Both the position numbers and the translations under genes were made by a program. A stretch of DNA of 64,000 bases from positions 11,263 through 75,262 of the forward strand of contig JBDHJM010000007.1 of NCBI GenBank assembly GCA_039586895.1, written 5' to 3'. This document shows positions 39,237-46,009 of the stretch, piece by piece (positions within the stretch are counted from its first letter, which is position 1; every line of letters starts with the position of its first letter). The DNA is from Gemmatimonadota bacterium (GTDB taxonomy: Bacteria > Gemmatimonadota > Gemmatimonadetes > Gemmatimonadales > GWC2-71-9). The notes beneath the pieces are model-generated. The model was not told where the DNA came from. It did no database searches and saw nothing but the letters and a program-made list of their open reading frames with translations.

Positions 39237-39863
39237 TCAGGGGGCCTGGGCGCCCGAGCCCGACTTCTCGACGGGGTAGCCGCGCTCGACCCAGTCCACC
39301 ATTCCGCCGAACACCAAACAGGCATCCTTGCCGGCACGCTGCATCACGGACGCCACGTAGCACGAGCGCACCTGGTCGCCGCACACGAGCGCGAGCTGCT
39401 TCGCATCGTCCACTTCCTCGAACGCCGACCACGGCTCGGTCCACTCCAGCACCTCGGAGCCGGGCACGTGGCCGTACTTGAACTCGAAGCGCTCGCGGGT
39501 ATCGATGACCCGGTAGCCGTCCAGCCCGGCCTCGAGCTGGTCCACGTCGATGAGCGGCAGCTCCTCGGTGGACAGTCCGGCTTCCTTCCACCCCTTCACT
39601 CCACCGTCCAGGTAGCCCGTGACGCTGAAGCCCGCCTTGGTGAGAATGTCGACCGCGACTTTGGCGATCGGCACCGGCTCGGCATGCACGATGTAGCTCC
39701 CCTCCTGCGGCAGCGCCATCTCGGCCCGGTCGGCCAGGTCGGCGCGGTTGAACTGGAAGTTCACCGCTCCCGGCACGTGCTCCTTGGCAAACGGCTTGGG
39801 AGGCCGCATGTCGAGAACCACCGCACCCCCTTCCATGGCCGCCTGGACCTCCTGCGGCGTCAT
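39237..39863 (-). CDS. tandem rhodanese-domain sulfurtransferase
   Basis: Two rhodanese folds are present, and only the second has the active-site loop (VCGDQVRS). The ATG overlaps the upstream stop (ATGA). Confidence 0.85.
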   Translation of the reverse strand: MTPQEVQAAMEGGAVVLDMRPPKPFAKEHVPGAVNFQFNRADLADRAEMALPQEGSYIVHAEPVPIAKVAVDILTKAGFSVTGYLDGGVKGWKEAGLSTEELPLIDVDQLEAGLDGYRVIDTRERFEFKYGHVPGSEVLEWTEPWSAFEEVDDAKQLALVCGDQVRSCYVASVMQRAGKDACLVFGGMVDWVERGYPVEKSGSGAQAP

Positions 39864-40660
39864 ACCCCGGCCTGCTTCAGCTGCTCTCTGTCGATCAGCC
39901 CGAGGTTGTACGACTTGATGTGGCCGTAGTTGTCGGGGAACGGCTTCGCCGTCTCCTTCACGAACGCGGCGAACTCCTGCGGCGTACCCTGTCGCATCGC
40001 CAGGTTGAAGCGCTTCTCGAACGCGATCGTGGACGTGGCCTTGCCGCTCATGTTCACGCCGCCGCATGTGGAGCCGCCGTAATGGTTGGGATACACCTCG
40101 ACGTGCTCGGGCAGCGCGAACAGCTTCTCGGTGACGCTGCGGTACTGCGTTTCCGCCCGCTCGCCCTCGTCCATCACGTCCATGGCGGCGTCACCCAGCA
40201 GGAGATCCGGCCGGCCCACGTCACCCACGAACAGCGAGTCGCCGGTCAGAACGAACCAGGGATCGTCCGACCGGGGCGTGTCGGTCACCACGTAGCTGGT
40301 GTGCTCCGGTGTGTGGCCCGGCGTGTGCATCGCCTTTATACGGACCCCCCCCACCTCCCAGACGTGTCCGTCCTCGAACGGCGTGAACTCGTACTTCACC
40401 AGGCCCCTCGCCGCCTCGTGCAGGTAGTGCGGCACGCCGTTCATCTCGGCGAGCTCGCGCGCACATGACACGTAGTCGGCATGTACGTGGGTCTCCAGCA
40501 CCGCGACGATCGTGAGCCCCAGATCCGCGGCGTCTAGTACGTACGACTCCGCGCCCAGGTCCTCGATGGGATCGACGATCACGCACTCCTTGGCCCGTGG
40601 GCAGCCCACGAGGTAAGAGGCCTGCGCCAGCGGCTCGAAACGAAACTGCTTGAAGATCAC
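39860..40660 (-). CDS. MBL-fold persulfide dioxygenase-like protein
   Basis: ETHVHADYVS, TPGHTPEH and the overall length resemble ETHE1/Blh/CstB-type PDOs. Confidence 0.75.
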   Translation of the reverse strand: MIFKQFRFEPLAQASYLVGCPRAKECVIVDPIEDLGAESYVLDAADLGLTIVAVLETHVHADYVSCARELAEMNGVPHYLHEAARGLVKYEFTPFEDGHVWEVGGVRIKAMHTPGHTPEHTSYVVTDTPRSDDPWFVLTGDSLFVGDVGRPDLLLGDAAMDVMDEGERAETQYRSVTEKLFALPEHVEVYPNHYGGSTCGGVNMSGKATSTIAFEKRFNLAMRQGTPQEFAAFVKETAKPFPDNYGHIKSYNLGLIDREQLKQAGV

Positions 40661-40663
40661 GAC

Positions 40664-44460: not shown

Positions 44461-44470
44461 CCTTCTCCTC

Positions 44471-46009
44471 TCACGCGAGCGGCACGGCCTGTCCGGCCTG
44501 TACGTAGGCGTGCTCGTGCGCCAGGAGACCGAGCAGAGCCAGCGGCGACGCGATCCACCCGATCCAAGGAGCGGCCACGGCAGCGAGCATGAGCACAATG
44601 CCGGCCCAGAAGTAGCCGGCGTAGAGTCCGCCGGTCATCTGGTGCGCCGCCAGCCGTGCGTGTGCGGTCGGATGTGACAGCGTTGCATCGCCCAGGATCA
44701 GCAGCAGGTGCGCGAGGGCACTCCAGCTCAGGATCCGCAGGAGATGTGGAACGACGCCCGGCTCGAGCCAAACCGCGACCGGGATCAGCGCCGCTGCGCC
44801 CGCGAGCGCCGCCTGCACCGCCAGATGCGGCGGCAGCAGCGGGCTCTGCCACAGGTCGCGCGCCTTCGACTGCGCAAACAGATAGGCCGTGTACACCGCG
44901 GTGAGCAGAGCCAGCGGCACGCCGAACAGCATCAGGATCCGCTGCAGGCCTTGCAGTCCGAACAGGCTCCCCGCGAAGTGCCCAGCCAACACCGCTGAGT
45001 ACCCGCCGATCACGACCGCACCACGCACCAACCAGCTGCGCCATTGGGCGTGGAGGAACAGATAGTAGAACCGCTCGGGGTGCTCGAGATCCCAGATGAG
45101 GAGGGCCCCGGTTGCTGCGAGGAACCCACCGGCCAGAATCGGCGCCGCCCACTGCCAGATGGCGCTGCCACCCGGGATCAAACCGAGCACCACGAGGAGC
45201 AGCGGAACCAGATACGCACCCGCCGCAATCCCCTTGGTCCAGGTGTAGAGGCTCACACGCCAGTCCCACGGCGCCGTGTGCGGCACGTCGTACGCCAGGA
45301 CGGCGGCGGCGGAGCTGTTGGCGGGTCCGGGGTGCCCCGAGGGAACCACGTGCGAGCCCGCCGGCTGCTCGCTCCACATATAGATGCCGCCGTCGGGCCG
45401 GCGCGCCGCGAGCGGGTCGAGGGTCGCCTGGTGAGCTCCTTTGTAGAACAGCTTGGGCCGCGTCTCCTTCTCGGGCCTGCGCACCGCCACCGCGTCGCGC
45501 TGTACCAGCTGCGTGACCCGCGCGGCCTCGTCGTTCAGGTCACCGACCATGATCGCCTGCGTGGGACACACGACCACGCACGCCGGCTCGAGGCCTACGT
45601 CCAGGCGGTGGGCGCAGAAGTTGCACTTCTCGGCCGAGTTGTCGTCGGGATTGATGAAGATGGCATCGTAGGGGCAGGCCGCGATGCACGCCTTGCAGCC
45701 GATGCAGATCGACTTGTCGAAGTCCACTATGCCGTCGGGCCGCTGATGCATGGCGGCCGTGGGACACACCTCTACGCAGGGGGCGTCCTGGCACTGGTTG
45801 CACCTGGTGACCTGGAACGCGCGCCGCACCTGCGGGAAGGCGCCCACGTCAACGTACTTGACGTACGTGCGGTTGACGCCGAGCGGCACTTCGTTCTCAG
45901 ACTTGCAGGCCGTGCTGCAGGCGTGGCACCCTATGCAGCGCGTGTGGTCGATGACCTTGGCCCACGCCGCACTGCCGGGCGGCGCTGCCGAGGCCGCAAA
46001 ATCGATCAT
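44471..46009 (-). CDS. fusion of a 4Fe-4S ferredoxin-type subunit and an NrfD/DmsC-like membrane anchor
   Basis: The N-terminus has several CxxCxxCxxxCP clusters (CIGCHACSTAC, CIGCKACIAACP). The C-terminal 290 aa or so has about 8 TM helices. Confidence 0.85.
   Translation of the reverse strand: MIDFAASAAPPGSAAWAKVIDHTRCIGCHACSTACKSENEVPLGVNRTYVKYVDVGAFPQVRRAFQVTRCNQCQDAPCVEVCPTAAMHQRPDGIVDFDKSICIGCKACIAACPYDAIFINPDDNSAEKCNFCAHRLDVGLEPACVVVCPTQAIMVGDLNDEAARVTQLVQRDAVAVRRPEKETRPKLFYKGAHQATLDPLAARRPDGGIYMWSEQPAGSHVVPSGHPGPANSSAAAVLAYDVPHTAPWDWRVSLYTWTKGIAAGAYLVPLLLVVLGLIPGGSAIWQWAAPILAGGFLAATGALLIWDLEHPERFYYLFLHAQWRSWLVRGAVVIGGYSAVLAGHFAGSLFGLQGLQRILMLFGVPLALLTAVYTAYLFAQSKARDLWQSPLLPPHLAVQAALAGAAALIPVAVWLEPGVVPHLLRILSWSALAHLLLILGDATLSHPTAHARLAAHQMTGGLYAGYFWAGIVLMLAAVAAPWIGWIASPLALLGLLAHEHAYVQAGQAVPLA

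Follow-up and report, generated by a model that had tools for sequence, protein, structure and literature searches.

A Tat-less molybdoenzyme encoded with persulfide oxidation genes in Gemmatimonadota, a candidate cytoplasmic sulfite:quinone oxidoreductase

Gene content of the operon

We analyzed a 64,000-nucleotide (nt) stretch of DNA from a soil bacterium of the Gemmatimonadota (GenBank assembly GCA_039586895.1, contig JBDHJM010000007.1, positions 11,263 to 75,262), referred to here as the window. The operon under study, on contig C106 of this 3.2-Mb, 91% complete genome, combines a molybdoenzyme with genes of persulfide metabolism, and we propose the enzyme, with caution, as a sulfite:quinone oxidoreductase that would act on the cytoplasmic face of the membrane. 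Translations of the open reading frames and Pfam searches placed six co-directional genes on the minus strand between 39237 and 46009, in agreement with a first-pass annotation of this DNA. Its molybdopterin subunit is present with a length of 971 amino acids (aa), the 972 given earlier having included the stop codon. The features are, in gene order:

44471-46009, minus strand: gene A, fusion of an iron-sulfur (FeS) domain and an NrfD domain, 512 aa; Pfam Fer4_11 at residues 65-157 and NrfD at 245-507
41545-44460, minus strand: gene B, molybdopterin (Mo) subunit, 971 aa; Pfam Molybdop_Fe4S4, Molybdopterin and Molydop_binding
41504-41544, minus strand: 41-nt spacer between genes B and C, the site of a TorD-like gene in close relatives
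40943-41503, minus strand: gene C, DsrE2-like sulfur carrier or sulfurtransferase, 186 aa; Pfam DrsE_2
40664-40912, minus strand: gene D, TusA sulfur carrier, 82 aa; Pfam TusA
39860-40660, minus strand: gene E, CstB-type (type III) persulfide dioxygenase (PDO), metallo-beta-lactamase (MBL) domain alone, 266 aa; Pfam Lactamase_B
39237-39863, minus strand: gene F, tandem rhodanese, 208 aa; two Pfam Rhodanese stretches
39198-39216, minus strand: hairpin CCCCCGCCGGTTTCGGGGG followed by GTTTCTT, likely an intrinsic terminator (terminator scan and direct reading)

The intergenic spacers are short (A-B 10 nt, B-C 41 nt, C-D 30 nt, D-E 3 nt), with GAGGAG inside the spacer between genes A and B, and genes E and F overlap through ATGA, which contains the gene F start and the gene E stop. 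The hairpin lies 20 nt past the last stop of the operon and has a G+C-rich stem and a T-rich tail; a hairpin with a T-tract had been noted at this end of the gene string, and both the scan and direct reading bear it out. The structure at 39216-39198 is likely the operon's intrinsic terminator, and terminator-like sites in the region are not rarer than expected by chance (3 observed, 2.2 expected). The 245-nt gap upstream of gene A contains the hairpin of the preceding gene, and a sigma-70 promoter scan of the region gave no match.

Subunits and membrane orientation of the molybdoenzyme

Genes A and B have the make-up of a complex iron-sulfur molybdoenzyme of the Psr/Phs/Arr-like branch of the MopB/DMSO-reductase superfamily. 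Gene A comprises a four-cluster ferredoxin (residues ~1-205), matched at residues 13-203 by the NCBIfam models for TtrB, NrfC, and DsrO, all below cut-off, and an NrfD-type anchor with eight helices (~261-497); it lacks a signal peptide, and its two ends are predicted to be cytoplasmic. Near its N-terminus gene B has the cluster motif CxxCxxxC...C, and its Mo-ligand position is occupied by a conserved Cys (HTNVCSS), which aligns with the ligand Cys of PsrA (2VPW) and ArrA (6CZ7). The protein begins MTPKKTEDRIRT, and its start at 44460 has the upstream GAGGAGAAGG and N-terminal conservation among relatives in its favor. An upstream TTG start at 44598, giving a 46-codon extension with "SRRRW", was rejected because it would run 128 nt into gene A and relatives do not conserve it.

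No established family name fits the Mo subunit. An NCBIfam scan returned 26 matches, all under cut-off and none of them a Soe model; the best was PhsA (211 bits, cut-off 694), and the best PDB matches were PsrA (123 bits) and ArrA (120 bits). A comparison with TtrABC gave agreement in gene order alone, with 103 bits against a cut-off of 1750 for TtrA, 181 against 416 for TtrB, and no twin-arginine translocation (Tat) signal in the Mo subunit. Look-ups of ten 50%-identity cluster representatives of the Mo family gave no informative names, and when 20 representatives were labelled with NCBIfam all fell below the PhsA cut-off, so that the clades stayed unnamed. IMG gives the family a COG name only, while other matches in the same searches have more specific product names. 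In relatives, open frames of 1300-1700 aa suggested an FeS-NrfD-Mo triple fusion. In 36 of 41 loci the FeS-NrfD match is out of frame with Mo, and the five same-frame loci have just 3-37 open codons before the Mo start; the long frames were therefore taken as chance open frames in high-GC DNA.

The enzyme had been proposed to lack a Tat signal and to face the cytoplasm, and the evidence upholds this. A crude in-house test for an RR pair with a hydrophobic N-terminus found none in the Mo subunit of the window or in its 120 closest family members, though the same test recognised just three of six Tat-bearing controls. Since gene A has no signal peptide and its FeS domain is joined to the first NrfD helix, this domain must stay on the side of the N-terminus. 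For an in-house positive-inside count, the helices were mapped on the family alignment and Lys plus Arg residues (K+R) were counted on the FeS side and on the opposite side. The FeS side had 8-16 K+R and the opposite side 0-3 in all seven family members counted, from six lineages, and gene A itself had 8 and 1. The sign was reversed in Tat-type NrfD proteins (2 v 10, 4 v 14) and the same in canonical SoeC. The Tat-less N-terminus, the FeS-NrfD fusion, and the K+R bias together place the soluble modules of the molybdoenzyme on the cytoplasmic side, as predicted from sequence.

Relationship to SoeABC and to exported enzymes

In layout the enzyme resembles SoeABC (EC 1.8.5.6), known from Allochromatium vinosum and Aquifex aeolicus. 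SoeABC too is a complex iron-sulfur molybdoenzyme bound to the membrane; it is likewise Tat-less, has a catalytic subunit of ~970 aa and carries its FeS and Mo modules on the cytoplasmic (N) side of an inverted NrfD-type anchor. The sulfur-oxidation context with TusA, DsrE, and rhodanese is also shared (PMC8076601). SoeABC differs in being encoded by three genes in the order catalytic (A), FeS (B), and membrane (C) subunit, whereas in the window B and C are fused and precede A; the soeABC loci examined also lack the TorD-like gene that relatives of the window enzyme carry.

For SoeA references, Chromatiaceae genomes were found through Cas10 of the A. vinosum plasmid pALVIN01 and searched with the window Mo subunit; A. 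vinosum itself was not among the genomes returned, and other Chromatiaceae stood in for it. The best matches there were 963-988 aa long and had no Tat signal. In Thiocapsa imhoffii and Chromatium okenii genes for an FeS protein (253-258 aa) and a membrane protein (325-341 aa) come after a SoeA-size gene, and by synteny, taxon, and literature these loci are soeABC (PMC8076601, PMC6374484). The window Mo subunit aligned with Thiocapsa SoeA at 29% identity over 264 N-terminal residues (BLASTP), and the score of 126 bits is no better than those of PsrA and ArrA from the PDB. Canonical SoeA is a tight group, found in 28 of 251 Pseudomonadota genomes and always at least 50% identical to the Thiocapsa protein.

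Two maximum-likelihood trees (34 and 40 rows) were built, with Aquifex SoeA, Salmonella TtrA, and Wolinella PsrA not included. Nine SoeA sequences from Chromatiaceae and other Pseudomonadota, mutually at least 50% identical, formed one supported (starred) clade. The window family formed a starred 12-row clade inside a starred 26-row clade together with Tat-exported Psr/Arx-like representatives, and SoeA fell outside the latter in both trees. Forcing the window family and SoeA together cost 27 log-likelihood units (approximately unbiased (AU) test, p 0.0255), values to be read with the quick searches and long branches behind the trees in mind and with the fact that the group tested was named after the first tree had been seen. 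The other modules agree: two FeS subunits from Tat-type operons share 52% and 50% identity with the FeS domain of gene A, and SoeB 36%, while for the NrfD domain the match to Tat-type NrfD proteins reaches E 4e-16 and that to SoeC a non-significant E 0.39. On the Mo, FeS, and NrfD comparisons the enzyme is not a member of SoeABC and has a separate ancestry. The label "Soe-like" given to it earlier thus holds as an analogy of layout and topology and fails as kinship, the phylogeny placing SoeA outside the supported clade of the window family.

The nearest relatives of all three modules are Tat-exported operons with the order B-C-A(-TorD-polyferredoxin), found at loci L120 and L006 and on a Sulfurovum mangrovi plasmid, whose Mo subunits are 36-47% identical to that of the window. 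They share with the window family the order FeS, NrfD, Mo, TorD and an N-terminal "PPxExW" before the cluster motif. They differ in their twin-arginine signals, which make them periplasmic, in separate FeS and NrfD proteins, in additional cytochrome c and polyferredoxin genes, and in having no persulfide genes beside them. The 12-row clade itself includes Tat-bearing members (P0126, P0195, P0149), in which FeS and NrfD are encoded separately and the order is again B-C-A-TorD. The order of FeS and membrane subunit before catalytic subunit, which had been called ttrBCA-like, is real and common to these Tat-type sister operons, which accounts for its occurrence in the window. This points to a Tat-exported BCA-type ancestor, which would have become inward-facing when its export signal was lost and B and C were joined into one protein.

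In the sister operons, FeS, NrfD, Mo, and TorD genes are followed by a gene for a ~360-aa polyferredoxin (L120:1745-8720; L012, the S. mangrovi plasmid; L010, a plasmid of Azoarcus sp. KH32C). The L120 operon adds cytochrome c and a ParA/Mrp-like ATPase. The Azoarcus locus has an arx-like appearance: genes for a PhnD-type binding protein, a kinase, and a sigma-54 regulator lie close by, as does arsB.

More distant are PsrABC (Thermus thermophilus, 2VPW) and PhsABC, which supply the best-scoring solved structure and NCBIfam model for the window Mo subunit. They share a catalytic subunit with a Cys-ligated molybdenum bis(pyranopterin guanine dinucleotide) (Mo-bis-PGD) site and a four-cluster ferredoxin, and Psr also the NrfD-type anchor. 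Unlike the window enzyme they are periplasmic, Tat-dependent reductases with a catalytic subunit of ~760 aa, compared with which the window subunit has ~200 extra residues.

Persulfide genes

The small genes of the operon had been likened to the cst and yrk sets, and the domain searches bear this out. Gene C matches Pfam DrsE_2 (E 2.9e-51, 173.9 bits, cut-off 25) and has 2QS7 and 3PNX as PDB relatives; as its score of 196.2 bits lies under the cut-off of 210 for the NCBIfam DsrE2 equivalog (NF047629), it is called DsrE2-like here. Gene D is a TusA protein by Pfam (E 6.2e-23, 80.9 bits, cut-off 28.6) and by its active-site Cys motif CPMP (LLCPMP at residues 15-20), and falls under the cut-off of the E. 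coli TusA equivalog (42.8 bits, cut-off 78).

For gene E the best PDB matches are two PDO-rhodanese fusions, 3TP9 at E 2.7e-46 and 3R2U at E 1.3e-42, with ETHE1 and glyoxalase II far behind. Gene E aligns to residues 5-236 of 3TP9 and has the metal motif HVHADY, and gene F aligns over its whole length (residues 2-199) to residues 276-473 of the same structure. The first rhodanese domain of gene F has no catalytic Cys and is predicted to be inactive; the second has a CGDQVRS loop. The two overlapping genes therefore correspond to a split CstB-type enzyme, and by sequence they are a CstB-type (type III) PDO-sulfurtransferase encoded as two separate genes.

The set is similar to cst of Staphylococcus aureus (CstR, CstA, CstB, sulfide:quinone oxidoreductase (SQR), TauE) and yrk of Bacillus subtilis in its CstB-type PDO followed by a pseudo-rhodanese and a rhodanese, in its TusA-type and DsrE-type carriers, and in the CstR-like or BigR-like regulators at the loci of relatives. 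It differs in that CstB is split into two overlapping genes, that the operon is without SQR, CstA, and TauE, and that a quinone-linked molybdoenzyme is attached; we know of no cst or yrk locus with such an enzyme.

Distribution and gene neighborhoods

The Mo subunit was found in 103 of 401 sampled Gemmatimonadota genomes, unevenly across families (f1 18/166, f2 2/93, f6 24/30, f7 55/70). Relatives that are 75-80% identical occur in Gemmatimonadaceae and Pyrinomonadaceae, and further family members in Acidobacteriota, Thermomicrobium, Rhodococcus jostii RHA1, Myxococcota, and haloarchaea. The named hosts outside Gemmatimonadota were located through plasmid records; identity to the window Mo subunit is 61% in Thermomicrobium roseum, 57% on plasmid pRHL3 of R. 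jostii RHA1, and 51-53% on five haloarchaeal replicons. Cultured, tractable hosts are available in R. jostii RHA1 (pRHL3), T. roseum, and Natrinema species.

Neighborhoods were compared for 40 Gemmatimonadota loci from ~35 genera, with persulfide genes counted within 8.5 kb of the enzyme. FeS-NrfD precedes Mo in all 40, and a TorD-like gene follows Mo in 32. A SulP permease (Sulfate_transp plus STAS) lies beside the enzyme in 21 loci (for example L081:12305-13849 and L064:15741-17222), on the same strand and just downstream of Mo/TorD in the loci inspected. PDO was counted in 13 loci, the DsrE2-like gene in 11, TusA in 10, and the tandem rhodanese in 11, and none of the four in 27. Six loci have an ArsR-type regulator with two Cys; the ArsR-type neighbors show this two-Cys pattern and no CVC motif. 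The persulfide block is placed downstream, upstream, or divergently according to genus, which argues for selection on the linkage rather than one inherited arrangement.

Other lineages show the same association in other orders. An Acidobacteriota-like locus, its Mo subunit 75% identical, reads Mo-TorD-PDO/rhodanese fusion, with a rhodanese and modABC upstream, and Pyrinomonadaceae contigs have two rhodaneses, TorD, and modABC by the enzyme. On pRHL3 the order is DsrE-TusA-FeSNrfD-Mo-Mrp (the two enzyme genes being RHA1_RS43840 and RHA1_RS43835), adjoined by divergent MBL genes, ArsR, and a fusion of ArsR and rhodanese. On a Myxococcota contig, FeSNrfD and Mo are accompanied by a sigma-54 activator, a PDO-rhodanese fusion, and two Sulf_transp genes. 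Linkage between the enzyme and persulfide genes is thus recurrent, in Gemmatimonadota, Acidobacteriota, Actinomycetota, and Myxococcota. In T. roseum a CsoR-family gene lies directly upstream; it has two Cys, and the position four residues ahead of the second is not a His, a pattern which we take to be of the CstR rather than the copper-sensor type.

At the position that TorD holds in other lineages, a gene for an Mrp/NBP35 ATPase overlaps the end of the Mo gene in Rhodococcus (L009:11799-12968) and haloarchaea (Natrinema, L011:10966-12126), and the ATPase may be an alternative maturation factor. Two Acidobacteriota-like loci (L122:6975-8962, L123:8278-9004) have extra genes between FeS-NrfD and Mo, a DinB-family gene in both and additionally a Y1 transposase and a PemK toxin in one; tight coupling of the two enzyme genes is therefore not universal.

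The operon in the window genome

The nearest relatives carry the string ArsR-FeSNrfD-Mo-TorD-DsrE2-TusA-PDO-Rhd (L069, L096), and the locus from the same genus as the window, L098, has the same string with ArsR not detected. A blastn search of the junction against L098:11318-12130 showed that the window has undergone a clean deletion of ~875 nt that removed the TorD-like gene and left a 41-nt scar at 41504-41544. No match to PF02613 or a TorD-like gene was found anywhere in the 91%-complete genome, which encodes several other molybdopterin enzymes. Nor was a SulP homologue detected in the whole genome, and no regulator gene adjoins the operon; an ArsR homologue (51% identity) is on contig C89. 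The enzyme was not found in three of the four other genomes of the genus. In the fourth, G066 (L098, contig C3, ~8501-11282), the match to the Mo gene is broken in two, covering residues 1-537 and 579-968.

The L098 Mo gene has an in-frame stop between two long open segments, and could be either a pseudogene or misassembled.

Erosion of the module may be under way in this lineage, although the enzyme genes of the window are intact. A stronger version, in which the enzyme part of the operon is decaying in the window genome and possibly no longer made in active form, could draw on the cleanly deleted TorD-like gene with no substitute found, on the loss of SulP and the ArsR-type regulator from the locus (and of SulP from the whole genome), and on the state of the congeneric genomes. 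We consider it very unlikely: neither enzyme gene is truncated or interrupted, both are 80% identical to relatives, the cluster and Mo-ligand Cys residues are preserved, canonical soeABC loci also have no adjacent TorD gene, and the genome is just 91% complete.

Proposed function

Many heterotrophs oxidize sulfide through SQR and PDO, and the fate of the resulting sulfite is often unclear. We give roughly even odds (a probability of about 0.5) to the proposal that the molybdoenzyme is a convergent cytoplasmic sulfite:quinone oxidoreductase and a functional analogue of SoeABC; its substrate, the direction of its reaction, and its coupling to quinone are what we infer from the genes. The six genes would form one operon oxidizing sulfane sulfur to sulfate in the cytoplasm. 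The rhodanese, TusA, and the DsrE2-like protein would gather and relay persulfide sulfur, which the CstB-type PDO would turn into sulfite with O2; in fused CstB enzymes a part is carried onward to thiosulfate. The two-polypeptide molybdoenzyme would then convert sulfite to sulfate at its putative Cys-ligated Mo-bis-PGD site on the cytoplasmic face, and the electrons would travel over five FeS clusters to reach quinone at a site within the inverted NrfD domain. Among relatives, the SulP permease probably handles sulfate, the BigR/SqrR-like or CstR-like repressor probably senses persulfide, and the TorD-like protein probably matures the Mo subunit. Production of sulfite in the cytoplasm by PDO and BigR-operon enzymes is reported in an earlier study (PMC5823870), and SoeABC is reported as the known N-side sulfite:quinone enzyme (PMC8076601).

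No description of the fused inward-facing enzyme or of its linkage to PDO was found in open-access papers and preprints. A MopB survey mentions a large unappreciated bSreA/SoeA radiation (PMC10100899). A KEGG-based survey of NrfD subunits lists SoeC in Proteobacteria, a few Clostridia, and Aquificae only, with neither Gemmatimonadetes nor Acidobacteria (PMC8076601), and in a sediment survey PDO was abundant in Gemmatimonadota and SoeABC undetected (PMC12345210). As the family has only a COG name, and as no SoeC is listed in those phyla, surveys of the KEGG type would miss this enzyme. A sulfite:quinone oxidoreductase of this kind would account for the fate of sulfite in several dominant soil phyla, bring energy conservation into a pathway treated as pure detoxification, and represent a second inversion of a respiratory molybdoenzyme across the membrane, independent of SoeABC.

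Several observations weigh against sulfite oxidation by this enzyme. Function cannot be transferred by orthology, since the Mo subunit lies outside the SoeA clade. The enzymes nearest to it are Tat-exported and uncharacterised, and the next ones out are Psr/Phs/Arx-like proteins, mostly reductases. Co-occurrence with CstB-type PDO is weak: PDO is present in 78 of 103 genomes with the enzyme (76%) and in 192 of 298 without it (64%), a tally among related genomes that is offered without a statistical test and that includes three unpublished genomes (G060, G100, G160), all PDO-positive and enzyme-negative. The 11 genomes of genus g89 have the enzyme without a CstB-type PDO, and family f2 has PDO in 83 of its 93 genomes and the enzyme in two. 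Most f6 and f7 loci consist of FeSNrfD-Mo-TorD with or without SulP alone. Fused CstB releases thiosulfate rather than free sulfite, and SulP permeases transport several different anions. To these are added the missing TorD-like, SulP, and adjacent regulator genes of the window genome, which moreover encodes possible alternative sulfite handlers, namely a SUOX/YedY-family gene and three TauE genes.

The thiosulfate-yielding nature of CstB, of which the PDO and rhodanese of the window are a split form, leads to the main rival, in which the enzyme passes electrons to quinone from thiosulfate or from a persulfide or thiosulfonate bound to TusA/DsrE2, rather than from free sulfite. TusA and the DsrE-family gene are its most tightly joined neighbors, directly upstream in R. 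jostii and directly downstream in the window, and the genomes that have the enzyme without a CstB-type PDO would fit as well. We regard this as unlikely, since we know of no Mo-bis-PGD enzyme that oxidizes protein-bound persulfide, 27 of the 40 loci have none of the four persulfide genes within 8.5 kb, and the SulP neighbor suits a free oxyanion product.

The company of reductases in sequence space raises the question of direction. An inward-facing reductase would use quinol to reduce polysulfide or persulfide, thiosulfate, or tetrathionate in the cytoplasm, as Psr/Phs-like relatives do outside; the best models and structures are of reductases (PhsA at 211 bits, PsrA 2VPW, ArrA 6CZ7), the clade sits among Tat-type Psr/Arx-like representatives, and the canonical Soe clade includes an Aquifex enzyme first described, according to the MopB survey, as a sulfur reductase (PMC10100899). 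Such an enzyme would make sulfide in the cytoplasm beside genes that remove it, its operon partners are oxidative, with an O2-dependent PDO, and the SulP neighbor suits sulfate. The hosts are largely aerobic soil heterotrophs. Set against these points a reductase appears distinctly improbable, and oxidation of sulfite remains the preferred direction and substrate.

The bare f6 and f7 loci, with no persulfide genes, would also suit a non-sulfur substrate such as selenite or selenate, arsenite, or another oxyanion imported by SulP, with the persulfide genes merely sharing a stress regulon. The varied anions carried by SulP members, the ArsR-family regulators, and an Arx-like relative in the wider clade speak for this. 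The ArsR neighbors, however, have the two-Cys persulfide-sensor pattern in place of a CVC motif of the As(III) type, the family loci examined show no adjacent ars, sel, or ter genes, and PDO, TusA, DsrE, or rhodanese adjacency recurs in four phyla with differing gene orders. A non-sulfur role therefore has a slim chance, and sulfite is kept as the proposed substrate.

In its widest extension, the proposal would make the enzyme a widespread and unrecognised quinone-linked last step of sulfur oxidation in aerobic heterotrophs of soil and sediment (Gemmatimonadota, Acidobacteriota, Actinomycetota, Chloroflexota, and Myxococcota) and in haloarchaea, evolved apart from SoeABC by the inward turning of a periplasmic enzyme and, in the boldest form, taking its substrate directly from TusA/DsrE2. 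This form would amount to an O2-independent, energy-conserving oxidation of carrier-bound sulfane sulfur; we put it forward as speculation, at long odds.

Other loci in and near the window

A second persulfide-dioxygenase locus lies at 58979-61335 of the window. Its last gene encodes a rhodanese domain ahead of an MBL domain, the opposite order to CstB, and the two genes preceding this fusion gave no Pfam match. A second large molybdopterin-family gene (1006 aa; G000:C106:84444-87464) is found ~9 kb past the window end. It has a clear twin-arginine signal (NRRRFLKVLGV) and, from its size and this signal, probably encodes the ActB subunit of alternative complex III.

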